Source: a virus. Taken from it: a stretch of DNA of 64,000 nucleotides. Shown piece by piece: positions 22,436 to 56,801 of the stretch. A model generated the notes under the pieces. That model was not told the DNA's origin. It ran no database searches and was given only the letters and a program-made list of their open reading frames with translations. Within the stretch, counting starts at the first letter, position 1; each line of letters opens with the position of its first letter. The translations under genes and the position numbers were made by a program. The stretch is from the IMG/VR virus record IMGVR_UViG_3300025030_000006; one strand, 5' to 3'.

Positions 22436-22449
22436 TTATTGTTTCCTCC

Positions 22450-33315: not shown

Positions 33316-33336
33316 ATATAATAAAGGAGATTTAAA

Positions 33337-33861
33337 ATGTCTGAAACAAACAAGCACCGCCATTTATTTACTGAATACTGTCAGGGAACGGGCTTAGATA
33401 TTGGTTATGGTGGTGATGCCATAACTCCTACTGCAATCACCTTTGATTTGCCCGATAAATATAGTTCAGTGGGGGATGACCCACAAAATATAGAAGGAGA
33501 TGCAAGAGATTTATCCATGTTTTCTGATAATAGTTTATCGTACATTTTTAGTAGTCATGTAATTGAGGACTTTTTAAATCCACAAGATGTATTAATTGAA
33601 TGGCTTAGAGTTATTAAACCAAATGGTTATCTTTGTCTCCTTTTTCCCGATGAATCCATTTATAGACAAAAAACAAAAATAAGAAATACAGAACATAAAT
33701 ATGCTGAATTTGGAATGAACTTTGTAACAAACATCCTTAGCAATATTTCAAAGGTAAAAACATTTTGCAAAGAATATAGCCTTTATATCATTCATTCTGA
33801 AGAACATTTTGAAAACGATGATTACAATTGTATTTTAATCGTTCAAAAGATAATGGAATGA
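33337..33861 (+). CDS. SAM-dependent methyltransferase (Methyltransf_11-like)
   Basis: GLDIGYGGD motif I, ...SHVIEDF... and LRVIKPNGYL motifs. Confidence 0.65.
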   Translation: MSETNKHRHLFTEYCQGTGLDIGYGGDAITPTAITFDLPDKYSSVGDDPQNIEGDARDLSMFSDNSLSYIFSSHVIEDFLNPQDVLIEWLRVIKPNGYLCLLFPDESIYRQKTKIRNTEHKYAEFGMNFVTNILSNISKVKTFCKEYSLYIIHSEEHFENDDYNCILIVQKIME

Positions 33862-39167: not shown

Positions 39168-39740
39168 TTATTGTTCCTCACATATTTGGTTTTTAGAAAA
39201 AATAGTTCTTACATAAGTATCTTCAAACCATTCACGTTCTTTTTTATCAAAACATAATCCCCATTTTTCTTTTATCATTATCCAAAGAATTCTGTATTCT
39301 ACTCTATTAATCAATGGCATCCAATCAGACGGGTTTTTAGCTCCCTTTTCCCGATTACTCTTGGCTGTGACTGCAATTAAATGATTTGGGTCAGCAAGAT
39401 AATTTGCATACTCAATACGTCTTTCCTGACTCCATTTATCAGCGCCAGAAATCCATGCTTCTTTTAAAGGAATAAAATGGTCTATATCCAATTCAGAAGG
39501 ATTTGTAATAATACTTCCGGTATATCTGCAAATCCAGATTCCCCATTCTACTTTTCCATTTTTATCAAATCGAACAGGAATAATACTTTCCTCAATTAGA
39601 ACTTCCTGCCTTGTGTCCCTCCCGTTGTTATCGGTGTCAATCCAGCCATTACCAAAATGCTTTTCCCTATTATATTTCTCCGCAAAACAAATTCCAAAAC
39701 TTAATAAAGTAATAACTAAACAGGAAATTAATATTCTCAT
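39168..39740 (-). CDS. secreted HNH/DUF1524-family nuclease
   Basis: ATG 39740 follows AAGGAG. The ORF-track start at 39758 is TTG. Signal peptide MRILISCLVITLLSFGICFA. Motifs DIDHFIPLKEAW and AVTAKSNREKGAKNPSDWMP. Confidence 0.65.
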   Translation of the reverse strand: MRILISCLVITLLSFGICFAEKYNREKHFGNGWIDTDNNGRDTRQEVLIEESIIPVRFDKNGKVEWGIWICRYTGSIITNPSELDIDHFIPLKEAWISGADKWSQERRIEYANYLADPNHLIAVTAKSNREKGAKNPSDWMPLINRVEYRILWIMIKEKWGLCFDKKEREWFEDTYVRTIFSKNQICEEQ

Positions 39741-39751
39741 TATTCTTCTCC

Positions 39752-39928
39752 TTAACAATCCGTATTTTTCTCTTCCGGTAATTCATAATACATGGCAATC
39801 GAAGCACACTCTTCATCTGTATATTCTCCTTCCAAATCATCGGAGAAACAACATGGAATAAAAGGAGTTTGTAATTTAGGTTCCTGAAAAGGTTCAGAAT
39901 ACCAATAACGAGATTCACTAACACACAT
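39752..39928 (-). CDS. acidic miniprotein (58 aa)
   Basis: ATG 39928 follows TGGAGAAAATTAA. MCVSESRYWYSEPFQEP...EEKNTDC. Confidence 0.45.
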   Translation of the reverse strand: MCVSESRYWYSEPFQEPKLQTPFIPCCFSDDLEGEYTDEECASIAMYYELPEEKNTDC

Positions 39929-43984: not shown

Positions 43985-44450
43985 TTTGTTTCATCCTTTC
44001 TTTTCTATCCCTTGAAAAATAACAGGCAAAAGATACCTGTTATTTAAATCGGTATTTTGGGGGATTGTTCCTAGTTGTTTCTAGGGCCACCGTTACCGTT
44101 ATTCAGTTTTTAAAGAGCAAAAATGGTACGCCTAAATATATATCAAGAATTGCAAGGAATGCAATACCCAAAAACGCATTTTTTCATATTTTTTTTCCTT
44201 CCCCCTGTTTTCGTGGTTTTATCCTATTTTGTGTCCTATTTATTTTCCTGATACCTCTGCACACCATTAAAAAATAAGTTTTTCTGTAGTTATCAGGATA
44301 TACATTTTTTCGTTATGTTTTAAATAACCCTAATAGTCGAAATCATAACGTTATAAACTATTAAATTCATTATGTTTTTTATTTTCTATTGGATAAATTA
44401 GCTTTTAATCGTGCCGGGAAAACCCAATGTTTTCAATAGTTTAAAACCTC

Positions 44451-44480
44451 TTGACACTACTTTATATTTTCTGTTAGTAT
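44451..44480 (+). promoter_or_regulatory. sigma70-like promoter with conserved upstream box
   Basis: TTGACA, 18 nt, TAGTAT. Preceded by TTCAATAGTTTAAAACCTC, which recurs at 53002-53020. Confidence 0.55.
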
Positions 44481-44525
44481 TTTGAGGTGTTTTAAAAGCA
44501 TAATTTTCAGAAAGGAGTGCAAAAA

Positions 44526-44729
44526 ATGCTATTAGATAGTTTATTGTTTATTTGTTTTCTGTTGTTCATTCTGATTCATTCAACGCACCTTGCCTTGTCT
44601 GGTTTTAAACCCGTTGACAGTTTGCCTTTATCCATTGGTTTAATTGAATTGATTATGTTTAATTCAATTGTTTTCTGCTATCCATTTGCTTTCAACCAAT
44701 CCAATTCATTCTTAGATTATTTTAATTAA
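44526..44729 (+). CDS. membrane protein (67 aa)
   Basis: ATG 44526 follows GAAAGGAG. The ORF-track start at 44517 is GTG. Confidence 0.5.
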   Translation: MLLDSLLFICFLLFILIHSTHLALSGFKPVDSLPLSIGLIELIMFNSIVFCYPFAFNQSNSFLDYFN

Positions 44730-44811
44730 TAAATTTTAATTAGAACTAATTTTCCCCTCTGCGCCGTAATTCCTGTATAGTCTATTCAATTAATTTTTAT
44801 CTTATATACAT

Positions 44812-44839
44812 ATATAATGTAACAAGGGCATCGAATCCA
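44812..44839 (+). repeat. 28-bp direct repeat, copy 1 (contains TATAAT)
   Basis: atataatgtaacaagggcatcgaatcca. Confidence 0.85.
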
Positions 44840-44888
44840 TTTTTTCAATTTTGTTTTCACTTTTAAAATCAATTCTTTTTATTATTTC

Positions 44889-44916
44889 ATATAATGTAAC
44901 AAGGTCATCGAATCCA
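44889..44916 (+). repeat. 28-bp direct repeat, copy 2
   Basis: atataatgtaacaaggtcatcgaatcca. One mismatch to copy 1; copies start 77 bp apart. Confidence 0.85.
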
Positions 44917-44954
44917 AAATTTTCATTTTATTTTCAGGTACTTACAAAAATTTC

Positions 44955-44984
44955 TTGACAGTATTCAAATTGATGATGTAGTTT
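44955..44984 (+). promoter_or_regulatory. sigma70-like promoter
   Basis: TTGACA, 18 nt, TAGTTT, upstream of the 45051 gene. Confidence 0.45.
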
Positions 44985-45050
44985 GGCGGAAAATTGGTTT
45001 CAATAGCTTCAATAGCAAGTAAACAATTAACATGTGAAAGGAGAAACAAA

Positions 45051-45365
45051 ATGACACGTAAAGAGTATATAGCTAATTCAAGCGAATTGCACAGACAATA
45101 CAATGCACAGTTTGTTAATAACAGTATAAAGGTGGCTGTAAAGAATTATTTTGGAATTGATGCACTATTGAATAGTAATGATAAACATTTAAATGACATT
45201 CCATTAGAACAATGGGATTCTGTCGGCACAAGGTTTAAAAGTCATTTGAATAAAGAAATGAAGAAACAAGGTGATTTTGTTAGTATGGCTGGAATTGTTT
45301 GCGTAATGAAAGAAGCCGCAAAACAATTGATTGAAGAAAATAGAAAGGGGATGCAAAATGATTAA
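45051..45365 (+). CDS. hypothetical protein
   Basis: ATG 45051 follows GAAAGGAGAAACAAA. Confidence 0.6.
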   Translation: MTRKEYIANSSELHRQYNAQFVNNSIKVAVKNYFGIDALLNSNDKHLNDIPLEQWDSVGTRFKSHLNKEMKKQGDFVSMAGIVCVMKEAAKQLIEENRKGMQND

Positions 45366-45519
45366 ACATAAAACAATTGGATTGACCAGACCATGCAATG
45401 CGCATGATTTGATTTTAACGTCAAATGGATTGCAGTGTGCTAATTGTTTGACAATGGATAATAATAAGTATATTAAATATGATTTGAATAGAGAAAAAGA
45501 TAATAGAAAGGAGAATTAA
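45358..45519 (+). CDS. hypothetical miniprotein
   Basis: ATG 45358 overlaps the upstream gene end. A CxxC is present. Confidence 0.45.
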   Translation: MIKHKTIGLTRPCNAHDLILTSNGLQCANCLTMDNNKYIKYDLNREKDNRKEN

Positions 45520-45702
45520 ATGGAAAAGGTTATTCCATTTAAATCAAGAAAGGATATAGGGGAAAGTATAGCAAAGGATTATTTTGATGAAATGGATAAA
45601 TGGTACAATTCCTTGATTGAATATCTTGGAAAGCTGGAACAAGAATTCTTTATTAGTGAAAGGCGAAGGGGATTTAAAGTATTTAAACAATTAACCAAAT
45701 GA
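45520..45702 (+). CDS. hypothetical miniprotein
   Basis: 60 aa with AAAGGAGAATTAA SD. Confidence 0.6.
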   Translation: MEKVIPFKSRKDIGESIAKDYFDEMDKWYNSLIEYLGKLEQEFFISERRRGFKVFKQLTK

Positions 45703-45720
45703 AAGGAGATTTTAAAATGA
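45676..45720 (+). repeat. ~45-bp direct repeat, left copy, flanking the Cys-triplet gene
   Basis: aaagtatttaaacaattaaccaaatgaaaggagattttaaaatga. Confidence 0.9.
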
Positions 45721-46493
45721 AAAAAGAAAATGGCTGGTATATCGACGATAATAATAATAAATGGGATAGTAATTATTACACAAAGGAACTAGCAATTGAA
45801 TTATCAAAAACTCTAATTGATTGCAGTGATTGCAGTGATTGCAGGTATTGCATTAATTGCAGGTATTGCATTAATTGCAGGTATTGCAGTGATTGTAGTG
45901 ATTGCAGTAATTGCAGTGATTGTAGTGATTGTAGTGATTGCAGTGATTGCAGTAATTGCAGTAATTGCAGTGATTGTAGTGATTGCAGTGATTGCAGTAA
46001 TTGCAGTAATTGCAGTAATTGCAGTAATTGCAGTGATTGTAGTGATTGCAGTGATTGCAGTAATTGCAGTAATTGCAGTGATTGTAGTGATTGCAGTGAT
46101 TGTAGTGATTGCAGTAATTGCAGTAATTGCAGTAATTGCAGTAATTGCAGTAATTGCAGTAATTGCAGTGATTGCAGTGATTGCAGTGATTGCAGTAATT
46201 GCAGTAATTGCAGTAATTGCAGTAATTGCAGTAATTGCAGTAATTGCAGTAATTGCAGTAATTTTGAAAATAACCCTAATAGATATATTGGTAATAAAAT
46301 TGGTAGCAGAAAAGCACAAACTACCACTTATTGGTTAAATGATAATATTCAAGTTGTTTGTGGTTGTTTTAAAGGAAATTTAATTGAATTTGAAAAAAGA
46401 GTAAATGAAGTATATAAGGGAAATGAACATCATAAAGAATATATGGGTTATATTTCAATTGTTAAGAAAATAATGGAGATGGAAAGTATTTAA
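45717..46493 (+). CDS. Cys-x-x triplet-repeat protein (49 consecutive C-S-[DN]/C-R-Y/C-I-N units) with unique N- and C-terminal domains
   Basis: ATG 45717 follows AAAGGAG. N-terminal 35 aa, then the repeat, then an ~75-aa C-terminal domain (FENNPNRYIGNKIGSRKAQTTTYW...VVCGCFKGNL...). Confidence 0.75.
   Translation: MKKENGWYIDDNNNKWDSNYYTKELAIELSKTLIDCSDCSDCRYCINCRYCINCRYCSDCSDCSNCSDCSDCSDCSDCSNCSNCSDCSDCSDCSNCSNCSNCSNCSDCSDCSDCSNCSNCSDCSDCSDCSDCSNCSNCSNCSNCSNCSNCSDCSDCSDCSNCSNCSNCSNCSNCSNCSNCSNFENNPNRYIGNKIGSRKAQTTTYWLNDNIQVVCGCFKGNLIEFEKRVNEVYKGNEHHKEYMGYISIVKKIMEMESI
45822..46262 (+). repeat. 9-bp tandem array, 49 units (441 bp)
   Basis: TG(C/T)AGT(G/A)AT units, with three TGCAGGTAT-TGCATTAAT pairs near the 5' end. 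No phase break. All six frames are open across it. Confidence 0.95.
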
Positions 46494-46527
46494 ACAATTA
46501 ACCAAATGAAAGGAGATTTAAAATGAT
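46483..46527 (+). repeat. ~45-bp direct repeat, right copy
   Basis: aaagtatttaaacaattaaccaaatgaaaggagatttaaaatga. One T shorter than the left copy. Confidence 0.9.
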
Positions 46528-47011
46528 TGAATTGGAAAGAGCAAAACAATTGCAGCATGGGGAAATTATCCATTACTTTAATGGCAAATGTCAAAATTGG
46601 AGAGTATCGGGAAAAGTTAAATTGTGGAAAACAAGGCCGGACGAATTGAAAGTACCAATTAAATATGATTTGTATGGTAATTCCTATTTGACTGAAAAAG
46701 TATTGGATATAATACATTTGGCTAGTGAATGCCCATTATGTAAAGAGGGAAGATTGACTATTGCAGAATGTATTGATTTGGCTATTAATAAAAGTGAATT
46801 GGCAAAGCATTATGGATTGAAGAATTTTGATAATGCAATTCCTGAAATGTTGTTTGCTGAATTGATTAGGGGAACTGATTTGACTATTTATCATTTTGTT
46901 TATTCCTATGACAGATATAAATCATTTGGTGAATTGTTTCCATTGACTATTGAGGCGGAAAACAGAATGAAAGAATTGGAGATAAATATTCCTGATATGC
47001 CTAACAAATGA
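46523..47011 (+). CDS. hypothetical protein
   Basis: 162-aa ORF with AAAGGAG SD. Confidence 0.65.
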   Translation: MIELERAKQLQHGEIIHYFNGKCQNWRVSGKVKLWKTRPDELKVPIKYDLYGNSYLTEKVLDIIHLASECPLCKEGRLTIAECIDLAINKSELAKHYGLKNFDNAIPEMLFAELIRGTDLTIYHFVYSYDRYKSFGELFPLTIEAENRMKELEINIPDMPNK

Positions 47012-47043
47012 ATTGAATCTATTTTAAAGAAAGGAGATTTAAA

Positions 47044-47412
47044 ATGAAAAGTTATCAAGAGGAAAACGTACATCTTAAAGGAATCCATTTGTTTTCTGAT
47101 TTCTTATCCAATCCAATCCCATTTAAACAACCCAACTTGTATAAACCAATTCCATTCCAATTGTCTCAAATAAGTTCTTACCTTCAAATTATGAATAGAA
47201 AATGTCAATATTCTTTTGAAGTATTTGAAGTAATGCCAACTGATAAATTGATTGATTTTGTAAAAGAAAATATGTTGGCAATTGATTATGATTCCATTTA
47301 TTTTGAAATCATTTGTTATGAGAATAATACAGCCATGTTAATTGCAAAATACAATCAAATCATAGGTAGCCGTTGGATTGCCATGATTGATATTAATTCA
47401 ATTCCCAAATAA
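47044..47412 (+). CDS. hypothetical protein
   Basis: 122-aa ORF with AAAGGAG SD. Confidence 0.65.
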   Translation: MKSYQEENVHLKGIHLFSDFLSNPIPFKQPNLYKPIPFQLSQISSYLQIMNRKCQYSFEVFEVMPTDKLIDFVKENMLAIDYDSIYFEIICYENNTAMLIAKYNQIIGSRWIAMIDINSIPK

Positions 47413-47439
47413 CCAATAACAAATGAAGGGAGAATTAAA

Positions 47440-48306
47440 ATGAACAAACAAGTAAAGAAATTGGCTAATGGGATTAAATACATTTCTTGTGATTATCTTT
47501 CCTTTGGGGATTATGACAATTCCTGTGCCATTGAAAGGGCGAATGTTAGATATTTAAAAAGTAAAGTTAGGAAATCCTCAATTGATTCCCATTCAATGAA
47601 TGACTGGGAATATCTATCCAAGGAATATACAATTGAAAGGGGTCATATTTGGTCTCCAATTGAAACGAAAAAGAAAATGGTTGAGACATATGGTGGCTAT
47701 GGTTCAATTCAATTGTGGATAAGGGAAGACGTTTGGAAAGAAATGGAATTGGCTTCATTGGATAATTATCCTGCATTGGATGATGAATTGGTTTCTGAAA
47801 TTGAAATGGAAATGGAAAATGAAGCATGGGAAAATGATGTTAAATCTGATCTGATTAAAACATTATCAGAGGAACATACAGAAGAGGAAATGGATAATCA
47901 GGAATGTAAATGTTTAAACTGCAATTGGGAAGGAAAAGTAAATGAATTGAAAGAAGATGGTATTTATGGTTGCCCCAATTGCAATAATCATTATTCAATA
48001 AAATATTATGATATTGATAAACAAACATTGCAGGAATTTGCTGATGAATTGGATAATGAAACCCTTTGGGAAATTTATCGTTATTGCTGCGATAAAACCA
48101 ATACCTATGGGGAAGTTGAATCCGGTGGCAATTGGTTTATCCAAATTGATGATTTGAAAGAATGCTTTGCTAATGTAATTGAAAAATACAGAAATGGAAA
48201 TGAATTGTGTGATTGTCATGGTAATGGTAGATGGGATAATGAGTTTAAAACAATTGAATGCGCCTTGTGTCATAATACTGGATTTATTGTTAGCGTAACA
48301 GAATAA
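47440..48306 (+). CDS. hypothetical protein with acidic central region and zinc-ribbon motifs
   Basis: 288 aa. Acidic run DDELVSEIEMEMENEAWEND. CKCLNC...CPNC and CDCHG...CALCHN pairs. Confidence 0.65.
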   Translation: MNKQVKKLANGIKYISCDYLSFGDYDNSCAIERANVRYLKSKVRKSSIDSHSMNDWEYLSKEYTIERGHIWSPIETKKKMVETYGGYGSIQLWIREDVWKEMELASLDNYPALDDELVSEIEMEMENEAWENDVKSDLIKTLSEEHTEEEMDNQECKCLNCNWEGKVNELKEDGIYGCPNCNNHYSIKYYDIDKQTLQEFADELDNETLWEIYRYCCDKTNTYGEVESGGNWFIQIDDLKECFANVIEKYRNGNELCDCHGNGRWDNEFKTIECALCHNTGFIVSVTE

Positions 48307-48343
48307 TTGAATCAATAATTTAACAGATGAAAGGAGAATCAAA

Positions 48344-48808
48344 ATGTATAAACAGGAATTTAATAATTTAACCCTTTGTCAATTGACTTCTGAACAGAAT
48401 AAACAAACCTGTGATTATTGGTTTATAGTTCAAAGTGATAGTATGGCTCATACAGCGTTTAGAACAAAGGATGAATTGAATAGATGGTTACTTGAACGGA
48501 ATATTGAATTGACGCAAGAATTGGTAGAACATGGAAAGCATTCATTTCAGAAATTGAAAGGACATTATTTTAGAACAAGTTACATGGATTATAATGTTTT
48601 TTATTCTTTGGATTATATTCAGAAAGCAAGAGTAATGGATAATGATAGATATACTCTTGCTTTAATAACAGAAGAAAATGGAATCAGAACAATTAATCAT
48701 TTGAATTGTAATATGAAATTTAGAATTGAATATCATTACAGAACAGGTGAAATGGTATTGGCAAATAAAATGAAATCATATTCGGATTACACTTATCGTT
48801 ATAATTAA
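48344..48808 (+). CDS. hypothetical protein
   Basis: 154-aa ORF with AAAGGAG SD. Confidence 0.65.
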   Translation: MYKQEFNNLTLCQLTSEQNKQTCDYWFIVQSDSMAHTAFRTKDELNRWLLERNIELTQELVEHGKHSFQKLKGHYFRTSYMDYNVFYSLDYIQKARVMDNDRYTLALITEENGIRTINHLNCNMKFRIEYHYRTGEMVLANKMKSYSDYTYRYN

Positions 48809-48834
48809 TTCAATAACAAGAAAGGAGATTTAAA

Positions 48835-49011
48835 ATGAGAGATGATTCTTGTAGGCGTCTTGAAAAAAATACTGTTAAATCAAGGACAAATAGAGCTGAT
48901 TCAATTGATTTATATTGTGGTGAATGCTTAAAAGAATCTACTATAATTGCTAATATTTCTTTGTTGATTTATTGTCCCCATTGTGGAAATGGAATTATAA
49001 TTGGCGCATAA
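48835..49011 (+). CDS. zinc-ribbon miniprotein (58 aa)
   Basis: AAAGGAG SD. CGEC...CPHCG. Confidence 0.5.
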   Translation: MRDDSCRRLEKNTVKSRTNRADSIDLYCGECLKESTIIANISLLIYCPHCGNGIIIGA

Positions 49012-49029
49012 CAATAAAGGAGAATTAAA

Positions 49030-49215
49030 ATGTTTTACGTTTTTTTTGAAAGGGATAACGATTCATTTATTGGTGACAGTAACAAGGAAAAGGAATCAGC
49101 TAAAATTCTAAGGGAATTGGCTGATAGGGTTGAAAAGGGGGATAAATCAGGTAAAATATTTGATTCAAATGGAAATTCAATTGGTATCTTTGGAATTAAA
49201 GGAAAGGAGAAATAA
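49030..49215 (+). CDS. hypothetical miniprotein
   Basis: 61 aa with AAAGGAG SD. Confidence 0.6.
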   Translation: MFYVFFERDNDSFIGDSNKEKESAKILRELADRVEKGDKSGKIFDSNGNSIGIFGIKGKEK

Positions 49216-49375
49216 ACAATGATTTATAATCAGCAAGAAAAAGATATACTCCAAAAAATTTATTGGAAAACACATATACACAATAAATAAACAAATGGTT
49301 GTGTTTGTTGGGGGTAGATTTTTATTTCACGAAACCTGCTCTAATATATTAAATAAAGGGAAGGAGAAATAAAAA

Positions 49376-49543
49376 ATGAATGAATTATTCTTGTTTCTTT
49401 CCGTACCTTACTTTTTTGTTTTTGGTTTGCTTTGGGAAAAGAAAACATTTGTGAATCTCTTTCTAAAAGTATTTCACTTGATTATGGCAATTTTTGGAAT
49501 TATTCTTTTGTTATTGCATTTTGGTTTTGTTATTAAACAATAA
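49376..49543 (+). CDS. membrane miniprotein (55 aa)
   Basis: GGAAGGAG SD. Two hydrophobic segments. Confidence 0.5.
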   Translation: MNELFLFLSVPYFFVFGLLWEKKTFVNLFLKVFHLIMAIFGIILLLLHFGFVIKQ

Positions 49544-49560
49544 AGAAAGGGGATTTAAAC

Positions 49561-49881
49561 ATGGTTTCTTTTAAATTCAAAACAAGATATGGATATACGT
49601 CTGTAATTGCTGAATTGATAGGTAAAAGAATCAGGTTTAAATTATCCCCATTGAAAGGTTTCAGACCGTTTCCAATTGAATGTTTTGCAGAATACAACCG
49701 TGAACTGCTTTATAAAAAGAAAATCGCTTCTGTCGTAATTGTGTGTGATTCCAATAAACTATCCATGTTGGAAATAGTTCGATTAAAAGAAAAAGCCAAG
49801 GAATTGTTACCTGTTCCAATTCAGGCAATTGATTTAGTATTTGAAAGACTTGCAAAGGGAGATTATTCTGTAGTACGCTAA
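49561..49881 (+). CDS. hypothetical protein
   Basis: 106-aa ORF with AAAGGGG SD. Confidence 0.6.
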   Translation: MVSFKFKTRYGYTSVIAELIGKRIRFKLSPLKGFRPFPIECFAEYNRELLYKKKIASVVIVCDSNKLSMLEIVRLKEKAKELLPVPIQAIDLVFERLAKGDYSVVR

Positions 49882-49926
49882 CAAGCAATTCAAATCCAAA
49901 TTTTAACAATTGAAAGGAGAATTAAA

Positions 49927-50292
49927 ATGAAAATTGGAACTGATGGAAGCATTGTTGAATGTCGAAATGAAGGATACACAGTAATTGAATTTGCAAAAAA
50001 CAAATTATTTAAAAATGGTATATTAGATAAAGATTTTCCTGTGCATGTTACAATCTCAAATCCGTATAATTGGGAAAATGGAAAACCATTAATTGGATAT
50101 AAAAAAGAAGATTTATATTTGTATGATACTTATTATTCTTTTAACGATGCTTTTGAAGTTTATTGTACTTATAAAGACGCAATTGATTCTTTTGCTGATT
50201 TGAAAAACTGTCCAATTGAAATGGATAATCCTAGTGAATATGATTTGCTTCATTTAATTGATGTTGTAAGTCATTATTGTGGTCTTGATTAA
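49927..50292 (+). CDS. hypothetical protein
   Basis: 121-aa ORF with AAAGGAG SD. Confidence 0.65.
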   Translation: MKIGTDGSIVECRNEGYTVIEFAKNKLFKNGILDKDFPVHVTISNPYNWENGKPLIGYKKEDLYLYDTYYSFNDAFEVYCTYKDAIDSFADLKNCPIEMDNPSEYDLLHLIDVVSHYCGLD

Positions 50293-50321
50293 ACAAATTA
50301 ACAAATGAAAGGGGAATTAAA

Positions 50322-50549
50322 ATGAGAACGTTTATTGAAGAAGTAAAGGTTTATAAGTTTAATGAGTTGAGTGATGAAGCAAAACAAAAGGCAATTGAAA
50401 ATCTGCATGATTTAAATACAAGTTACGATTGGGATCAGTTTATTACTGATGATTTCAAAGAGAAAATGAATGCAATTGGATTTGTTGTAAGTAATACTTA
50501 TTTTTCTGGTTTCTGGTCACAAGGGGATGGTGCCTGTTTTGAAGGATAA
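50322..50549 (+). CDS. hypothetical protein, N-terminal-like half of a two-part family (ends ...FSGFWSQGDGACFEG)
   Basis: 75 aa with AAAGGGG SD. Stop TAA is followed immediately by an in-frame ATG. Confidence 0.6.
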   Translation: MRTFIEEVKVYKFNELSDEAKQKAIENLHDLNTSYDWDQFITDDFKEKMNAIGFVVSNTYFSGFWSQGDGACFEG

Positions 50550-50894
50550 ATGGAAGATTTAGAATTTTTTATAAAAACACATAAAATGGGGAATAAATTC
50601 AGAAAGTTTTTGAATAATGCAGATGATTTGTCAATTACTACAAAACATAGGGGACATTATTACCATGAAATGTGCATGGATATTTCGGTAATTGAATATC
50701 ATTTGTCTGATTCAATTACTCAATCTGAATTTACTGAATTTGAAGAATGGATTACTGAAACATTGAGGGATTATGCAAAAGAATTGTATAGAGATTTGGA
50801 AAAGGAGTATGAGTATTTGTCAAGTGAAAAAGTAATCATTGAAACAATTGAGGCAAATGAATATGAATTTACCGAAGATGGAAAATTGTATTAA
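50550..50894 (+). CDS. hypothetical protein, C-terminal-like half (ends ...IEANEYEFTEDGKLY)
   Basis: 114 aa, same frame as the upstream ORF. No separate SD other than GAAGGA. Confidence 0.55.
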   Translation: MEDLEFFIKTHKMGNKFRKFLNNADDLSITTKHRGHYYHEMCMDISVIEYHLSDSITQSEFTEFEEWITETLRDYAKELYRDLEKEYEYLSSEKVIIETIEANEYEFTEDGKLY

Positions 50895-50919
50895 TTTATA
50901 ACAAGAAAGGAGAATTAAA

Positions 50920-51105
50920 ATGAAAGATAAATATTATGATTGGGTAAAGAGATTGGGACAATATCATTTATCAATTGGTGGTCAATCAACAACTCTTTGT
51001 GGAATGCCAATGATGGGCAATAATTATGCTAAAGTAATTCCAAAGGATGAAAGAACTAAATGTAACAAATGTTTTAATATAGCAGAAATTAGGTCATTAA
51101 CTTAA
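50920..51105 (+). CDS. hypothetical miniprotein
   Basis: 61 aa with AAAGGAG SD. Confidence 0.6.
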   Translation: MKDKYYDWVKRLGQYHLSIGGQSTTLCGMPMMGNNYAKVIPKDERTKCNKCFNIAEIRSLT

Positions 51106-51126
51106 TAAAGAAAGGAGAATTAAATA

Positions 51127-51309
51127 ATGGATAATGAAGAGTTTAATTTTATTGTAACAACAATTGTCAAAGGTAAGAAACAAAACAGAATTGTGAAAGC
51201 AGAGAATTCATTATCTGCCAGATTTAAAGTTTATCATCAATTAATGGCAGCAGATAAGAAAGGCAATTTCACAATTATTGATGTTAAACAGAAAGGAGAA
51301 AAACAATGA
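51127..51309 (+). CDS. hypothetical miniprotein
   Basis: 60 aa with AAAGGAG SD. Confidence 0.6.
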   Translation: MDNEEFNFIVTTIVKGKKQNRIVKAENSLSARFKVYHQLMAADKKGNFTIIDVKQKGEKQ

Positions 51310-51494
51310 GAAAGGATTCAACAGAGAGACTAATTGATGCTAAAGGTATCCTTGACAATTTACTTTTTACTAGAAGTCAAGAAATGTCTGCAATAATTAA
51401 TCAAGAAATAAGTGTTGTAAGAAGTATTATTTTTAATGTTTTGGTAGCTGAAAACGTTTATTGGTGGGAAGAACAGAAAGGAGAAAATAAATGA
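51306..51494 (+). CDS. hypothetical miniprotein
   Basis: 62 aa with ATGA coupling. Confidence 0.6.
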   Translation: MRKDSTERLIDAKGILDNLLFTRSQEMSAIINQEISVVRSIIFNVLVAENVYWWEEQKGENK

Positions 51495-51682
51495 CTAAAC
51501 TTAATCTTCATCATAAAGAAGTTAAAAAGGAAACAAATATAATGATGTTTCGTTGTCCTGAATGTCACAAGGATTCTGAATTCAGTAAATGGATTAAATC
51601 AGTAAATCATGCAGAACATTCCATTTGTCCTAGTTGTAAAAAGGAAGTAAAAGATACTATGGTAAAACGAGTGAAATCATAA
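51491..51682 (+). CDS. zinc-ribbon miniprotein
   Basis: 63 aa. CPEC...CPSC. ATGA coupling. Confidence 0.6.
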   Translation: MTKLNLHHKEVKKETNIMMFRCPECHKDSEFSKWIKSVNHAEHSICPSCKKEVKDTMVKRVKS

Positions 51683-51936
51683 CAGATTAATTGAATCCAT
51701 TTTTATAAAAGAAAGGATAAATCAAATGGATAAAATAAGAATAAATGTAATAAGCAAATATGGTAACATTGATGAAATTTTTGAATTCACACCAAAAAAA
51801 AACAAAAAGAAACATATTTACAGTTAATACACAAAAAATATTTATGGAAGCAATAAACCATGCAAAAGATATAAAAGGCAAAATTGAGATTACTTTTGAG
51901 TCTATTCATTTTTAAATAAAAGAAAGGAGAAATAAA

Positions 51937-52131
51937 ATGAAAGAATTGCTGGTTATTAAAAAGGAAATTGAAAGAGTCATTGTAATTGGAGAGAATCACA
52001 ATTTTGAAAAAGCCAAAAGGCAATATGAGAATCAGGGATACAGAATTATTAGAACGGGGGCTAGACCAATTACATTGAATCAATACAGTAAAGACGAATT
52101 CAAAATGATTGCTGAACGAACAATTGATTGA
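51937..52131 (+). CDS. hypothetical miniprotein
   Basis: 64 aa with AAAGGAG SD. Confidence 0.6.
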   Translation: MKELLVIKKEIERVIVIGENHNFEKAKRQYENQGYRIIRTGARPITLNQYSKDEFKMIAERTID

Positions 52132-52143
52132 AGGGAAAATTAT

Positions 52144-52428
52144 ATGGATTATTTAAAAAAGAAAATACATTCTATTAACAGAATAATTGAACATTTAGGA
52201 AAGGAAATTAAAATCCAAATTGTGGTTACTTGTTCAATTGACAACATTGGAAGACGTTACGAATCCAAAGGAACATTTTTGGATAATAGAGCAACAAAAC
52301 AAACAATCAAAAATGCTTTATGGGATGAAACAATTTATCTAATTCATTTTCTGGAAGCATTGGGTTTCCCTGAAAATTATGTAATTGAAAAAATGAATGA
52401 ATTCATTGAAGAGGAAATAAACAAATGA
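52144..52428 (+). CDS. hypothetical protein
   Basis: 94-aa ORF. Confidence 0.6.
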   Translation: MDYLKKKIHSINRIIEHLGKEIKIQIVVTCSIDNIGRRYESKGTFLDNRATKQTIKNALWDETIYLIHFLEALGFPENYVIEKMNEFIEEEINK

Positions 52429-52550
52429 AAAAAGAAATATCGACTGTAGGTTATTGCCCTTCATGTAGAAAGAAAGTTATGTTTATTAAAACAAAAGATA
52501 AGAATGAATATACTTGTGTAACTTGTAAACTTCCATTTTTTAAACAATAA
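52425..52550 (+). CDS. zinc-ribbon miniprotein (41 aa)
   Basis: ATGA coupling. CPSC...CVTC. Confidence 0.45.
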   Translation: MKKEISTVGYCPSCRKKVMFIKTKDKNEYTCVTCKLPFFKQ

Positions 52551-52564
52551 TTGAAAGGAGAAGA

Positions 52565-52738
52565 ATGAAAAGAATAAATGATAATCAATTGAGAATGGTA
52601 AATGATTCTTGTCCATTTTGTTTTGCTGAAATGTATCCGTTACAATCACTTACTTTGGAAGTCATTTACCGTTGTGGTTCTTCGGGTAGCAGAATAACGG
52701 GTTTATATATTAAACAATGTGGAAAGGGGAATAAATAA
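52565..52738 (+). CDS. Cys-containing miniprotein (57 aa)
   Basis: AAAGGAGAAGA SD. CPFC...C..G. Confidence 0.45.
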   Translation: MKRINDNQLRMVNDSCPFCFAEMYPLQSLTLEVIYRCGSSGSRITGLYIKQCGKGNK

Positions 52739-52739
52739 A

Positions 52740-52940
52740 ATGAATGAACAACAAAAGAAAGATGCAGAAGACACAATAAACTTATTGAAAGAAATGGATT
52801 ATAATTTTATTAGACCAGCAGATTTGATTTTAAAAGAATTTGCTGATGTTTTGTTACTTCAAGAAGAGGAAATAAATAACTTGAAAACAAGATTGGATTT
52901 TGTAGAAAGAGTAAACAAAAGAAATTTGCCCATGAGATAA
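52740..52940 (+). CDS. hypothetical miniprotein
   Basis: ATG 52740 follows GGAAAGGGGAATAAATAAA. Confidence 0.5.
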   Translation: MNEQQKKDAEDTINLLKEMDYNFIRPADLILKEFADVLLLQEEEINNLKTRLDFVERVNKRNLPMR

Positions 52941-53020
52941 TTACCAGATAAATACTTAAATCAATTCTTTTATTTTCATGTATTTTAAAAACAGTAACAA
53001 TTTCAACAGTTTAAAACCAC

Positions 53021-53049
53021 TTGACAGAATTATATTTTTCCGATAGACT
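53021..53049 (+). promoter_or_regulatory. sigma70-like promoter with conserved upstream box
   Basis: TTGACA, 17 nt, TAGACT. Upstream TTCAACAGTTTAAAACCAC matches the box at 44432-44450. Confidence 0.55.
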
Positions 53050-53107
53050 TTTAACTTCCTACAAGTCATTCGACTCCAAGTTTTCAAACTCAAAAGGAGA
53101 ATTCAAA

Positions 53108-53380
53108 ATGATTGAAATCAAAGTTAATTATCCATCAAAGAAAGCTGAGAAAAATAATTATCCTTATATTGGTGTAAAGGAGTTTATTTATGTTCTTTTT
53201 ACAAAACCACGTGAGGGGTTTGTAATTGCCATTGATGAAGACTTTTGTGAAATTGATATGAGTATACCAGAGGATGATGAAAGTTATTCTGAAAGTTATT
53301 CAATTGGTGATTATAGAAAAACATGGTCAGAAAAATATTTTAAAAAAATTGAGGGTGAATTGATTTTGAAAAACAAATAA
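53108..53380 (+). CDS. hypothetical protein
   Basis: ATG 53108 follows AAAGGAGAATTCAAA. Confidence 0.6.
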   Translation: MIEIKVNYPSKKAEKNNYPYIGVKEFIYVLFTKPREGFVIAIDEDFCEIDMSIPEDDESYSESYSIGDYRKTWSEKYFKKIEGELILKNK

Positions 53381-53396
53381 AAGAAAGGAGAATTAA

Positions 53397-53810
53397 ATGG
53401 ATGAAAAGAAAAAATTCAATCCCTATCCAGAAGGAATAATTCATCCCATTCCAAAAGAGCAATATCCCAAACTCAATTCAGAACACAAACAAATGCTGGA
53501 ATTATTTAATCGGAAAAAACAATTGGAAGAAGAACTCAAGGAAGTCAATGAATCAATTGACAGAAAGGAGAAACTGATTTTAAAACAAATTGATTCAGGT
53601 AAAACATTTAATTGGTGTTGGAAATGGATTTTTACCAGAACTAATATTTCGTGGAAAGATGTTTGTATTAAGTTTATTGGTAAAAAGAAAGTAGAGGAAA
53701 TATCCGCAAGAACGGAAGCAACCAAATATCCCCATGTTGGAATTGAGGGATTCCACCCTAGACCATTTCAGAAACCAAGGCGTTTCAATCTTAGAAGACC
53801 AATTAAATGA
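53397..53810 (+). CDS. hypothetical protein
   Basis: 137-aa ORF with AAAGGAG SD. Confidence 0.65.
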   Translation: MDEKKKFNPYPEGIIHPIPKEQYPKLNSEHKQMLELFNRKKQLEEELKEVNESIDRKEKLILKQIDSGKTFNWCWKWIFTRTNISWKDVCIKFIGKKKVEEISARTEATKYPHVGIEGFHPRPFQKPRRFNLRRPIK

Positions 53811-53824
53811 AAGGGGAAAAGGAA

Positions 53825-54034
53825 ATGAGTAACCATAATAAAATTGATTTTAAAAATGCTTCCATAGAATTGCTTGATTCAGCTATAGTTGTGCTTGGTT
53901 TGGCTATTAAATGGTATGAAGCAGAAAATTTTGATAGGGAGGAACTTTGTGGTGGTGAACAATGTGATACTTGCAATCTGGCAAAAGGGGTCAAAGAATT
54001 TTTGAACAAACAAAATAATGAAACCGAAAGTTAG
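53825..54034 (+). CDS. hypothetical miniprotein
   Basis: ATG 53825 follows GGGGAAAAGGAA. Confidence 0.5.
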   Translation: MSNHNKIDFKNASIELLDSAIVVLGLAIKWYEAENFDREELCGGEQCDTCNLAKGVKEFLNKQNNETES

Positions 54035-55520
54035 ATTGCCAATTTGGAAAGTATATTTGTATAATCTGCTTTATCGTTTCAGACGATTTAAATGGATAAA
54101 TACAGGTATGCTTGAATTCGGCATGACCAACAAGGAAAAAGGTTTATTGCATGGGATGTTGCACAAATATCTCAGAAAGGAGGTAATGCGACAAGTAAAA
54201 GCAGTTCAGTATTATGAATTGGTAAGTCTCGTGCTTGGTAGTAAAATTGCCATAGCTACCAAGGAAGAAATTCAATTGGCAAATAAACTATTCATCTCTT
54301 ACAAAATCAACACAAAGGAGCTAATCATGGAAATGAAACAATTGAAGAAATTCGCTGAAGAAGTTGGTCTTACTGCTAAAGCAATTAAAGGAATGGAAGA
54401 AGATGAATTGATTCTTGAAATTGTGAAGAATTTGGATGCTGATACCACTTATTCTGATGATTTCATTGCTTGGTATGATGAATTGCCGGAAGAAATGTTT
54501 GATGAGGCTGACGCAATTGATGAAGAGAAACCCAAGGGCAAAGGCAAGAAGGAAAAAGAAGTAGAGAAGGAAGAGGAAGAAGAAAATGATTTCTCTGAAT
54601 TGATTGGAGCAATTGAAGAATGTACGGAAATTGATGAATTGGTAGAGATTGCCCAAGATGAAGATTTTGAAGAAATTTTTGCTGAGGTGGATACTGATAC
54701 CAAATTGGTTAAGAAACTGAAAAAAGCAATGCTTAAAGCAATTGAAGATTATGAACCTGAAGTGGAAGAAGAAAAACCTGAAGTAAAAGAAAAAGGCAAA
54801 AAGGAAGAACCCATTAAAGAAGAAAAGAAACGTGGCCGTCCTGCCAAAGAAAAAGAAGAAGTGGAAGAAGTTGAATTGGATGACGAAGCCAAGGAAGAAT
54901 TGGTTACTGCAATCAATGAAGCTGATTCTACTGAAGACCTGAAAGAAGTAGCTGATTCGGTAAAAGAAGATTATCCCGAATTGTTTAAAGGTATTGCTTT
55001 CCGTTCTGGTCGGGGCAAATCCCCTTATCGTGAATTGGAAGAAGTTCAGGCAGAAATGCTTGAAAAATTGGGCGCTGAAGTAGAAGAAAAAGAAGAGGAA
55101 GAAGAAACTGAAACGGAATTGGAAATCACCGCTGAATCCGTAAATGATGCAGTTGAAGCAGATGATAAGGAAACTCTGGTTGCAATGTGTGAGCAATTGG
55201 AAATTGAATTGAAACCTTTGATGAAAAGGTCTGCTAAGAAAATGGCTGAAAAGATTGTTGAAAAACTTCCCAAAGAAAAACCGGGGAAACGCGGATTGAA
55301 AGGGAAAGACAAAAAAGAAAAAGTAGAAGAGGTTGCAGAAGAAAAAGGAGAAAAACAATCTGTTTTCGCTTTGGTTGAACAAATGGTAAATGATGGTGCC
55401 AAAGAAAAAGATATCGTTGCAGCGTGTGAACCTATTCTCGCTGAAAGAGGAAAGAAAAAACTCTTTGTAGCAAAGTTTGTTAAATCTTTGATTGCCATTG
55501 TTGAATCTCTTGAAGATTAG
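54018..55520 (+). CDS. highly charged E/K-rich protein with RGRP AT-hook core
   Basis: 500-aa ORF. An internal ATG at 54327 with AAAGGAG SD is an alternative or additional start. KKRGRPAKEKEE. Long acidic runs. Confidence 0.6.
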   Translation: MKPKVRLPIWKVYLYNLLYRFRRFKWINTGMLEFGMTNKEKGLLHGMLHKYLRKEVMRQVKAVQYYELVSLVLGSKIAIATKEEIQLANKLFISYKINTKELIMEMKQLKKFAEEVGLTAKAIKGMEEDELILEIVKNLDADTTYSDDFIAWYDELPEEMFDEADAIDEEKPKGKGKKEKEVEKEEEEENDFSELIGAIEECTEIDELVEIAQDEDFEEIFAEVDTDTKLVKKLKKAMLKAIEDYEPEVEEEKPEVKEKGKKEEPIKEEKKRGRPAKEKEEVEEVELDDEAKEELVTAINEADSTEDLKEVADSVKEDYPELFKGIAFRSGRGKSPYRELEEVQAEMLEKLGAEVEEKEEEEETETELEITAESVNDAVEADDKETLVAMCEQLEIELKPLMKRSAKKMAEKIVEKLPKEKPGKRGLKGKDKKEKVEEVAEEKGEKQSVFALVEQMVNDGAKEKDIVAACEPILAERGKKKLFVAKFVKSLIAIVESLED

Positions 55521-55529
55521 TTGGTTAAA

Positions 55530-55574
55530 GGGGGATTAGGTTATATAATTTTTGTCAATATAACCTAATCCCCC
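55530..55574 (+). terminator. 17-bp perfect hairpin terminator candidate
   Basis: GGGGGATTAGGTTATAT-N11-ATATAACCTAATCCCCC, 10 nt after the stop at 55520. Weak U-tract. Confidence 0.55.
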
Positions 55575-55612
55575 ACATCTAAAATAAATAATAAATGAAA
55601 GGAGAAAACAAA

Positions 55613-55927
55613 ATGAAAAAGGTTATTGATGGTAAAGTTTATAATACTGAAACGGCAGAGGAAGTTCATAATTGGTCTAATCATTATTACAGAAATGATT
55701 TTGGTTACTGTGAAGAAACACTTTATAAAACAAAGAAAGGCAATTACTTTTTGTATGGTGAGGGTGGTGCAATGAGTAAATATTCAAGACCAGTAGGAAA
55801 CAATGGTCAAACTGGTGGGGATGGAATTACTGTAATGACAAAATATGAGGCAGTTAAATGGTTGGAAAACCATGATGGGGATAATGTTTTAATTGGGTTG
55901 TTTTCAGAAGAAATAGAAGAAGCATAA
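55613..55927 (+). CDS. hypothetical protein
   Basis: ATG 55613 follows AAAGGAGAAAACAAA. Confidence 0.6.
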   Translation: MKKVIDGKVYNTETAEEVHNWSNHYYRNDFGYCEETLYKTKKGNYFLYGEGGAMSKYSRPVGNNGQTGGDGITVMTKYEAVKWLENHDGDNVLIGLFSEEIEEA

Positions 55928-56035
55928 TTGATTTCTGAATAAATGGGGTTGCCCTTCTTTTATTGGTTAAAAGGATTCCTCCTTTTGAGTGGGTTAATGG
56001 ACAATGAAAGGCAATCCCATTTTTATTATTCTTGT

Positions 56036-56127
56036 GGGGTAGTGGCGAAGCTGGTTGAAACGCAACGGTCTTAAAAACCGTTACTGATAAGTTCACACCG
56101 TCGGTTCGATTCCGACCTACCCCACCA
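56036..56127 (+). tRNA. tRNA-Leu (anticodon UAA), class II with long variable arm, CCA encoded
   Basis: Acceptor GGGGTAG/CTACCCC. Anticodon stem ACGGT/ACCGT with loop CUUAAAA. T-arm GTCGG-TTCGATT-CCGAC. 18-nt variable region. Discriminator A followed by CCA. Confidence 0.85.
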
Positions 56128-56151
56128 ATTAAAAAGAAAGGAGAAAATAAA

Positions 56152-56328
56152 ATGGGTAAAACTCTTTGTGCCTTTATTTTTGGATTGCTTTTTTCAAGTT
56201 CTTTTTGGGTTTTCTTTGTGTTTGGTGAAGGTAATTTGAAAAATGGCTTGGTATTTTTTCCAATTGCATCATCAGCTATTCTTACTATTGTAATAACAGT
56301 ATTTATTTTAGACAATTGGAATAATTAA
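56152..56328 (+). CDS. membrane miniprotein (58 aa)
   Basis: AAAGGAG SD right after the tRNA. Two hydrophobic segments. Confidence 0.5.
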   Translation: MGKTLCAFIFGLLFSSSFWVFFVFGEGNLKNGLVFFPIASSAILTIVITVFILDNWNN

Positions 56329-56346
56329 AAAGAAAGGATAAAATGA

Positions 56347-56631
56347 ATGGAAAGAGAATCAATTGGAAAAGGCTTTAGAGAAAAGAATAAAAGAATCCTA
56401 TTGTATAAAAGTATAAACCCAGAAACAAATAAAAATGAATATTGTCTTGTAACAAAAGTTTTGAAGGAAAATAGAAAAATTGAAATACAGGAAATATTTC
56501 TAAAAGAAGAAACTATCTACAGATTTATTGATTTATTTATGGTGCTAAATGAAACAGCAAGAATGAATTGTTATTACGAAGATAATTTATTTAAGGCTGA
56601 ATTGTATAAAAAGAAAGGAGAAAATAAATGA
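56347..56631 (+). CDS. hypothetical protein
   Basis: 94-aa ORF with AAAGGA SD. Confidence 0.6.
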   Translation: MERESIGKGFREKNKRILLYKSINPETNKNEYCLVTKVLKENRKIEIQEIFLKEETIYRFIDLFMVLNETARMNCYYEDNLFKAELYKKKGENK

Positions 56632-56801
56632 AATGGAAAGCATTAAATGAGTTAAAAGAAGTATTGCAAGAACATCTATCAATTGAGTTAAATACAAAAA
56701 CATTTGCTATGAAAGTAATGGTTTTGAAATAAAAATTAAATTCGATGATGAAGTCATTTGTTCTGATTGGATTTATTTGTCACAATTAAAGGAATAAGAT
56801 T

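Follow-up and report, generated by a model that had tools for sequence, protein, structure and literature searches.

Tract and gene

What kind of protein can be made of a tract with a cysteine at every third residue, is such a tract real, and can it change in length? These questions are raised by the window analyzed here, a 64,000-nt stretch of virus DNA (IMG/VR record IMGVR_UViG_3300025030_000006) that carries on its plus strand a gene built around 49 head-to-tail 9-bp units. We found that this gene is an extreme member of a large uncharacterised phage protein family. The explanation of the locus as a whole that we favor, with moderate confidence, is that it encodes a three-module phage protein in which the Cys tract would act as a length-variable rod, standing in the slot that a beta-solenoid fills in related proteins.

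The Cys-triplet repeat protein (45717-46493, plus strand) has 258 aa, 51 Cys residues and a pI of 4.3. It consists of an N-terminal domain with three short strands and a helix (45717-45821, aa 1-35), the (C-x-x)49 array (45822-46262, 49 x 9 bp, aa 36-182) and a C-terminal alpha/beta domain which, with the stop codon, takes up 46263-46493 (aa 183-258) and reads IGSR..TT..YW..VVCGCFKG.L.EFE, all on the plus strand. A Shine-Dalgarno (SD) sequence, AAAGGAG, is located 8 nt before the ATG at 45717. The mechanical open reading frame (ORF) opens at ATG 45699, inside the linker that precedes the gene; relatives begin at MKKENG. The N-terminus is hydrophilic (MKKENGWYIDDNNNK), with no signal peptide apparent.

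By Tandem Repeats Finder, the array (45820-46263, period 9, 49.3 copies, 91% matches, 0 indels, score 636) was the strongest tandem repeat in the window by a wide margin. Cutting 45822-46262 into 9-mers yielded exactly 49 in-phase units, as the original prediction from the sequence had stated, and hence a Cys at every third residue over 147 aa. The units fall into five types, namely A (TGCAGTAAT, CSN, n = 23), B (TGCAGTGAT, CSD with TGC, n = 14), C (TGTAGTGAT, CSD with TGT, n = 7), D (TGCAGGTAT, CRY, n = 3) and E (TGCATTAAT, CIN, n = 2), arranged in the order BBDEDEDBCABCCBAABCBAAAABCBAABCBCAAAAAABBBAAAAAAAA. Three CRY/CIN pairs had been predicted; CRY does occur three times, but CIN only twice. 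Variation between units had been ascribed almost entirely to one G/A (Asp/Asn) and one synonymous C/T exchange, and in 44 of the 49 units the variable sites are indeed limited to position 3 (C/T, synonymous) and position 7 (G/A, Asp/Asn). The tract contains 21 Asp versus 3 Arg residues.

Reading frame and assembly of the array

The public assembly does not call the Cys frame at this locus. Instead, it reports a spurious +1-frame ORF (45826-46338, plus strand) of 170 aa, beginning "IAVIAV...", and L036, L041 and L044 carry this mis-called annotation. Because the public gene call took the +1 frame, the Cys-frame protein is absent from protein collections, in which an exact look-up found no record. 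The mis-called products, when sought for array-length variants, had no entries in the cluster index.

The Cys frame was fixed by full-length homologues (e.g., P0001, E = 7e-77, 100% coverage). We regard it as settled, because the N- and C-domains are conserved in frame with Cys across more than 500 homologues. The original prediction had called for a search for C-x-x repeat proteins with these end domains and had allowed that homologues might reveal another frame; the search returned the more than 500 relatives, and these confirmed the Cys frame.

Several features of the assemblies could nevertheless be taken to mean that the array is mis-assembled, is a non-coding simple repeat, or is translated in another frame. 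Some short-read contigs end in or beside the array (L037, L042), contig L043 breaks at the 37-nt linker repeat, and L038-L040 break in the C-domain region, starting 50-146 nt upstream of the second linker copy; in addition, the public gene call is in the other frame and the antisense strand likewise reads C-N-Y. The contigs of ~98.5 kb appear to be circular genomes cut open at the array locus. An apparent 20-nt indel in L038 turned out to be only a scaffold gap of Ns. On the other hand, an identical 49-unit array is present in a separate European Nucleotide Archive (ENA) contig, ERZ27254732:k141_400306, and the mis-called product spanning the array is recorded on two contigs, so that an artefact of one assembly, which the original prediction had asked to be checked, is ruled out. 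As the longest exact repeat inside the array is 71 nt, the assembler k of 141 is long enough to resolve it. With the SD and ATG of the Cys frame properly placed and the end domains in frame with Cys throughout the homologues, we consider a mis-assembled, non-coding or differently translated array extremely improbable.

A large family of phage Cys-triplet proteins

In a large protein collection, 524 relatives were identified, the best at E = 7e-77 and full coverage. The window protein also matched PHROG 15341 (function unknown in PHROGs) over aa 1-135 with E = 7e-41. Common to the relatives is a three-part plan of N-domain, uninterrupted (C-x-x)n tract of 8-42 units, and C-domain. Present in the window protein are both the N-domain motif NG.Y.D.NNN.W....YT.E.A...S.TL..C and the C-domain motif NP.RY..IGSR..QTT.YW...VVCGCF.G.L.EFE..V, the latter with a match to phrog_20532 (E = 5e-12). 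In a 66-sequence alignment, N14, W16, A26, S30 and L33 were invariant or nearly so, and P187, G196, S197, R198, C215, G216 and C217 of the C-domain were conserved. Separate N- and C-terminal domains had been predicted and were found; they are not unique, however, as had also been supposed, since both are conserved across the family.

The Cys columns are invariant across family alignments, and the triplets follow the vocabulary C-[S > R > I, T]-[D > N > Y > G]. At the first x position (x1), the Ser codons counted in 47 tracts of other loci were AGY in 199 cases and TCN in 377. Because both codon classes are used for Ser across the family, this residue is, to judge by its codons, kept by selection and is not merely the relic of one ancestral codon. 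TCN codons being about twice as frequent as AGY codons at x1, we rejected for this position the notion that the x residues are just a one-step mutational cloud around TGY-AGT-GAT.

Pfam contained no model matching the window protein or 111 relatives, NCBIfam none matching the window protein or five relatives, and no functional study of the family was found in literature searches. The relatives lie in small-gene blocks near Xre-type regulators and DNA polymerase on phage contigs of 60-160 kb, and are also found in metagenome-assembled genome (MAG) contigs that represent many phyla. The C-x-x tract is a module in its own right: in other phages it is joined to no fewer than three different N-termini and to alternative C-termini that are short.

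Some phage contigs (L007/L008, L010, L012, L013, L019, L025) carry 2-5 tandem paralogous C-x-x genes within 6 kb. These paralogues have a different N-terminus (MTITKRDNRWYDENNNSW) and, in place of the C-domain, a short C-terminus (...NRLLEPDL). In a Prevotella sp. MAG contig (JAMPIK010000011.1; L046, 2890-3399, plus strand), a chromosomal gene between TolC-like and recF-like genes encodes a product of 169 aa in which C-x-x repeats come after a lipoprotein-type signal (MKKFFLTLFAALALVASSC). The C-x-x module therefore occurs also in exported cellular proteins, where disulfides could form. The literature on eukaryotic "cysteine-rich repeats" was set aside, as it concerns a different and longer repeat.

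Literature searches returned heterocycloanthracin as the sole published strain-variable Cys-Xaa-Xaa repeat. We weighed the possibility that the window protein is a precursor of a ribosomally synthesized and post-translationally modified peptide (RiPP) of the thiazole/oxazole-modified microcin (TOMM) type, its Cys and Ser residues being heterocyclised to give a toxin. Heterocycloanthracin precursors vary between strains in Cys-Xaa-Xaa repeat number, in three-residue multiples, and their low-complexity genes are prone to mis-annotation, gene finders often missing or mis-calling them (Haft 2009, PMC2674419). The window gene shares both properties, its repeat number being variable and its frame mis-called, and Cys and Ser are both open to heterocyclisation. 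The known precursors, however, have ~88 aa organized as leader and core, and need cyclodehydratase, dehydrogenase and scaffold genes (PMC2674419), whereas the window gene encodes 258 aa with two conserved, confidently folded end domains, the C-terminal one common to ordinary solenoid proteins. The scanned window proteins (the window takes in all but ~35 kb of the genome) included no cyclodehydratase, YcaO, dehydrogenase, radical-SAM or lanthipeptide enzyme, and no such maturation enzyme was found in the neighborhoods of homologues. Finally, neither the window protein nor five relatives matched the heterocycloanthracin model of NCBIfam (TIGR03601). A RiPP precursor is thus, in our judgment, a very improbable identity for this protein.

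The C-terminal domain links the Cys tract to beta-solenoid proteins

By tblastn, the last ~60 residues of the window protein resembled the C-terminal ends of two phage proteins, one from a Chryseobacterium phage and one from a Clostridium phage. The C-domain is 41-43% identical to these hexapeptide-repeat proteins of Chryseobacterium phage MA9V-1 and Clostridium phage Amboise, in which the region upstream of it consists of classic hexapeptide repeats of the GNAxVx type. As a word-indexed search with the C-domain alone gave 2 matches, an exhaustive HMMER search was used instead and recovered 517 cluster representatives. In those sampled, the C-domain was preceded by C-x-x, hexapeptide/YdcK-type, pentapeptide or leucine-rich (LRR) repeats, or was standing alone, and Pfam confirmed the partner repeat classes upstream. 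Foldseek searches against predicted viral structures superposed the C-domain, at a root-mean-square deviation of 1.3-2 Å, on the C-termini of solenoid-type phage proteins named "Beta solenoid repeat", "Polymer-forming cytoskeletal", "Hexapeptide repeat containing transferase like" and "Pentapeptide repeat". Against the six-frame ORFs of the window, the C-domain profile gave one match only.

Because the same C-domain follows hexapeptide/YdcK, pentapeptide or LRR repeats elsewhere, the Cys tract is best read, from sequence and predicted structures, as occupying the slot in which related phage proteins carry a beta-solenoid. This shared C-domain is the strongest evidence that bears on the tract, and points to a module replacing the beta-solenoid in a modular phage protein superfamily. 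The beta-solenoid-like scaffold put forward in the original prediction thereby gains indirect support, in that the C-domain follows true beta-solenoid repeats in many phage proteins.

Expansion and length variation of the array

With 49 units, the window tract is the longest of ~170 examined; 120 proteins gave a median of 19 units and a longest tract of 36, and tracts in the viral loci reached at most 42. At the DNA level the array is nearly uniform, with its five unit types and AGT for every Ser. When positions 3 and 7 were considered together, 23 units had C/A, 14 C/G, 7 T/G and 0 T/A (Fisher p = 0.003). The synonymous T is found only with G, and the units have therefore spread as copied blocks and not by independent mutation. 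A 63-bp (7-unit) duplication is visible at 45946-46079 (plus strand) as exact 71-nt copies at 45946-46016 and 46009-46079.

A contig from another sample (L042, ERZ27254729:k141_928766) carries 42 units between identical flanks, and thus lacks exactly one 63-bp block of 7 units. The shorter allele is probably real, because a 141-mer over its junction cannot derive from the 49-unit allele. Array length appears to vary between samples (42 versus 49 units), as seen on assembled contigs. Tracts elsewhere in the family form a continuum from near-uniform (41 units of 4 types in L021; 28 units of 5 types in L009) to fully diverged (25 units of 22 types in L001), so tracts of this family have repeatedly expanded and then diverged. 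Together, the difference between 42 and 49 units, the linkage of the two variable sites and this range from uniform to diverged tracts back the earlier suggestion of unit turnover by slippage or recombination. A length-variable contingency protein had also been suggested; any such behavior would act through the length of the protein and not through on/off switching, since steps of 9 bp always keep the reading frame.

The variation is centered on an A/G site in AAT/GAT codons and superficially resembles adenine mutagenesis, as if the array were the target of a diversity-generating retroelement (DGR). No second (template) copy of the array was found anywhere in the window, and no reverse transcriptase was matched among the scanned window ORFs of ≥300 aa; the DGR reading was rejected on these two grounds. 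A DNA-level element, such as a recombination hotspot or a restriction decoy, in which coding is incidental, is at odds with the protein-level selection on Cys and Ser across codon classes. Of all the readings weighed, a DGR target or DNA-level element is the one to which we give the least credence.

Linkers flanking the Cys-repeat gene

As originally described, the gene is bracketed by near-identical repeats that include the SD and ATG. The upstream linker copy (45676-45720, plus strand) contains the stops TAA 45684, TAA 45692 and TGA 45700, an SD at 45702-45708 and ATG 45717. In the downstream copy (46483-46527, plus strand), TAA 46491-46493 ends the repeat gene, and the gene that follows (162 aa) uses the SD and ATG 46523 of this copy. 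While the upstream gene, of 60 aa, ends at the third linker stop (TGA), the repeat gene ends at the first stop of the downstream copy. An exact 37-nt match (45676-45712 = 46483-46519, AAAGTATTTAAACAATTAACCAAATGAAAGGAGATTT) was found exactly twice, with 0 expected by chance; beyond it the similarity runs on to the ATG, the first copy having one extra T. The linker thus closes each of the three frames with a stop codon and directly afterwards presents an SD and an ATG, and recombination between two linkers of this kind could cleanly remove or add a gene in any frame.

Similar junctions are found throughout the plus-strand block of small genes (45028-56632). The consensus TAAC(A/C)AATGAAAGGAGA(A/T)TTAAAATG occurs at ~10 gene starts of the block, AAAGGAGATTTAAAATG has 12 occurrences at ≤2 mismatches versus 0.15 expected, and the repeat families D2, D4 and D5 cover 7-10 junctions. 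The local alignment score of the flanking pair was 41, whereas the other 945 junction pairs averaged 11.8 ± 4.2 and none exceeded 27. The flanking repeat is therefore the best-conserved pair of a general linker family, and not an element specific to the Cys-repeat gene. The junction sequence could mediate modular gene shuffling across the whole small-gene block. The gene downstream of the Cys-repeat gene had no relatives in the viral contigs or JGI metagenomes searched, so that no more distant phage relative was comparable for presence or absence of the cassette.

Fold and chemistry of the Cys tract

AlphaFold modeled the N-domain of the window protein with a predicted local distance difference test (pLDDT) score of 94-97 (aa 1-30) and the C-domain with ~90-98 (from aa ~190), and both end domains of a 183-aa relative with ~90 or more. 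Structure prediction, which had been proposed as a check, was thus confident for the end domains but gave no confident fold for the tract, in which a faint period-3 beta-bridge pattern was seen over aa 130-175 (pLDDT ~55). The repeat region of the window protein and of 111 relatives matched no recognized solenoid repeat model in Pfam, and the insect antifreeze repeat (PF02420) gave no Pfam match at E ≤ 0.1.

As there is no hydrophobic N-terminus, the protein is presumably cytoplasmic. Within the favored explanation, the tract would most likely form a thin, acidic, rod-like repeat with a ladder of cysteines at its core, and this ladder, stabilized by disulfides or, in the cytoplasm, by metal ions, would take the place of a hydrophobic core. 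Disulfides being unfavored in the cytoplasm, metal coordination by overlapping CxxC motifs is a reasonable alternative to them. In the 12-residue coil of the Tenebrio antifreeze protein (TmAFP), inward-facing positions recur at every third residue (Cys, Ser, Cys, Ala), and by likeness to it a (C-x-x)4 coil is geometrically plausible. In-frame slippage and unequal recombination would alter the length of the rod and leave the protein intact, and the linkers may permit, or remain from, gene insertion by homologous recombination between gene junctions. Our guess as to function is a host-takeover or counter-defence binding protein that might act in early host interaction, because the gene is located among early-type genes and the repeat surface is acidic.

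A number of observations weigh against this explanation. The tract had pLDDT <50 over most of its length in both the window protein and the 183-aa homologue (111-sequence alignment), and true pentapeptide or hexapeptide solenoids are usually modeled well by AlphaFold. Foldseek searches against the PDB gave no match below E = 1.4, and the match of the family profile to the Tenebrio antifreeze beta-helix (1EZG) was marginal (E = 0.012-0.03). Across 68 diverse tracts, no significant coil-length periodicity was detected in the x positions (z ~2 at lags 4 and 8). The 42-unit variant was seen in an assembly, at the end of a contig. The flanking repeats are not general in the family, being found elsewhere only between tandem paralogues. 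Finally, the gain and loss of the cassette is still a hypothesis: among the assemblies and the viral and JGI collections searched, no cassette-less genome was found, and every recovered assembly carries the gene or breaks within it.

The poor modeling of the tract can be viewed differently if AlphaFold cannot fold it without cofactors. The tract might then be a metal sponge or wire, binding mainly metal ions or Fe-S clusters through CxxC knuckles, for example with one Cys4 site per four triplets, and acting as a metallothionein-like sink or redox-active element during infection. The 49 Cys residues do form overlapping CxxC motifs in a protein without an export signal, and CxxCxxC is the core of ferredoxin-type cluster motifs. 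The family profile weakly matched CXXC-type zinc fingers, although at E = 0.1-0.9 these matches are below significance. No metal-handling genes lie nearby, and the same C-domain is joined to Cys-free solenoids, so the common function of the family needs no cysteine chemistry. We regard metal binding as unlikely to be the main role of the tract; it is, however, compatible with the rod in the solenoid slot, as a means of stabilizing it. A more far-reaching proposal is that the tract represents a new architecture, a cytoplasmic cysteine-ladder solenoid with a chain of metal ions or Fe-S clusters as its core, swappable with ordinary beta-solenoids. Such an architecture is doubtful, and we would give it only an outside chance. 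If true, phages would be using a cysteine-ladder rod of adjustable length in a common host-interaction protein family.

Phage and genomic setting

The window is part of a tailed-phage genome of ~30% GC, assigned as such because genes for terminase, portal, protease, capsid, tape measure and DNA polymerase are present. The phage genome totals ~98.7 kb and comes from groundwater metagenomes. The minus strand carries a structural module (tape measure, major head protein, protease, portal and large terminase), and blocks of small genes on the plus strand lead into a replication module with a uracil-DNA glycosylase (UDG)/exonuclease protein, a family A polymerase and an AAA ATPase. The Cys-repeat gene is placed in a block of small, non-structural genes. 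The ENA metagenome contig ERZ27254732:k141_400306 (98,675 nt) is 100% identical to the window over at least 12 kb, and the same phage was found again in several groundwater-metagenome assemblies, on contigs of 98.4-98.7 kb. Deposited phages included no close relative, and a DNA similarity search with 44000-49000 matched no known phage.

A sigma-70 promoter scan around the Cys-repeat gene found fewer sites than in shuffled sequence. Two direct repeats of 48 nt with 85% identity (44812-44859 and 44889-44936, ATATAATGTAACAAGG.CATCGAATCCA...) are located in the divergent intergenic region directly upstream of the small-gene block that holds the Cys-repeat gene. These repeats at 44812-44936 may be operator or promoter elements.

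Elsewhere in the window, a 1494-aa ORF between the portal and terminase genes (17951-22435, minus strand) is a sharp compositional chimera. Its first ~210 codons (about 21800-22435) have a phage-like GC content of ~31-34%, and the other ~1,280 codons one of 53-62%. The product starts with a signal-like N-terminus and contains a right-handed beta-helix domain resembling pectate lyase (Pfam E = 7e-11), and looks like a depolymerase or receptor-binding module recently gained from a high-GC source and fused to a phage anchor. Tandem repeats are found just upstream of the start of this GC-rich ORF, before the next minus-strand gene (22447-22638): one at 22559-22638 with 2.7 copies of 30 bp at 98% identity, the other at 22447-22500 with 2.6 copies of 21 bp. 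The 860-aa "large terminase" ORF (23031-25613, minus strand) matched terminase PHROGs, while the best tblastn matches of its N-terminal half (~35% identity) were phage proteins annotated as DNA helicases. This may reflect an unusual fusion or errors in the annotation of the helicase-labeled phage records.

The replication enzyme is split into a UDG-superfamily plus 3'-5' exonuclease protein (56802-58466, plus strand) and a separate family A polymerase domain protein (59287-60699, plus strand), with ~800 bp of small ORFs between the two; a tRNA-Leu(TAA) gene (56036-56127) lies just upstream. Other window genes (29942-30331, plus; 39168-39758, minus; 30934-32478 and 32620-33861, plus) encode a protein with a histone H1-like Hc1 domain (E = 1e-7), one whose nuclease domain is GmrSD C-terminal-like (E = 4e-6), a glycosyltransferase that is a fusion of GT2 and GT9, and two methyltransferases.

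Significance of the locus

No solved structure with Cys at every third residue over 147 residues was found, and the Cys tract, on which current structure prediction fails, is placed where relatives carry well-understood beta-solenoids. It therefore offers a clean way to ask how a cytoplasmic repeat folds when it has no hydrophobic core, and whether it does so through metal, through disulfides or not at all. Databases already contain many members of the family, and nothing that we found points to a specific biological activity; as it is common in environmental phages, even basic biochemistry would annotate many genes. The locus also exemplifies the in-frame expansion and contraction of a coding repeat, together with a linker of three-frame stops, SD and ATG suited to seamless insertion. 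A general pitfall is apparent here as well, in that gene callers may choose the wrong frame in such arrays and so hide the family from protein databases.

Comparison with known systems

Among known systems, PHROG 15341 and the homologues in Campylobacter phages of the Firehammervirus group (CPt10_1641, CP21_165 and those of CP220) are close to the window protein. The homologues are likewise phage-encoded among non-structural genes and share the N-domain, with 46-56% identity over aa 1-55, followed by C-x-x repeats. In contrast to the window protein, they are shorter (142 aa), have diverged repeats and are without the C-terminal domain. They are labeled as hypothetical only, with old, weak matches to the "insect antifreeze repeat", and the Campylobacter phage genome paper makes no mention of CPt10_1641, antifreeze, cysteine or a repeat protein. 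TmAFP itself (PDB 1EZG), a disulfide-braced beta-helix with 12 residues per turn, resembles the tract in being a Cys-rich and very regular short repeat. It differs in having Cys at every sixth residue rather than every third, and in being a secreted, disulfide-bonded protein with a Thr-Cys-Thr ice-binding face; the likeness is one of analogy and not of family relationship.

For the linkers, the closest parallels are the PeSL cassettes of T4-type phages, composed of a promoter and a stem-loop (PMC2839356, PMC4122927), and the "boundary sequences" at gene junctions of lambdoid phages (as cited in a passage of PMC3029335). Both recur in variable regions of phage genomes and have been proposed to mediate gene insertion, deletion and swapping by homologous recombination (PMC2839356, PMC4122927 and, in the passage cited, PMC3029335). 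The linkers differ from PeSL in being translation junctions of ~26-45 nt, made up of stops in three frames, SD and ATG, and not of a promoter and stem-loop, and from both systems in that no recombinant without the gene was observed here. In common with both, they are short conserved junction sequences, here repeated at no fewer than 10 gene starts.

With regard to the protein, a further comparison is with the phage beta-solenoid proteins that have the same C-domain, including gp165 of MA9V-1, the Amboise protein, the "polymer-forming cytoskeletal protein" of Bacillus phage Bp8p-T, the "hexapeptide repeat" protein of phiAGATE and "pentapeptide repeat" proteins of uncultured Caudovirales. These carry a recognized solenoid (YdcK/hexapeptide, bactofilin-like, pentapeptide or LRR) with a hydrophobic core, whereas the window protein has a Cys-Ser-x tract without a recognized fold, and their N-terminal regions are unlike its own. 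What they have in common with the window protein is a C-domain that is homologous in sequence (41-43% identity) and in predicted fold (1.3-2 Å) and, directly before it, the repeat region.

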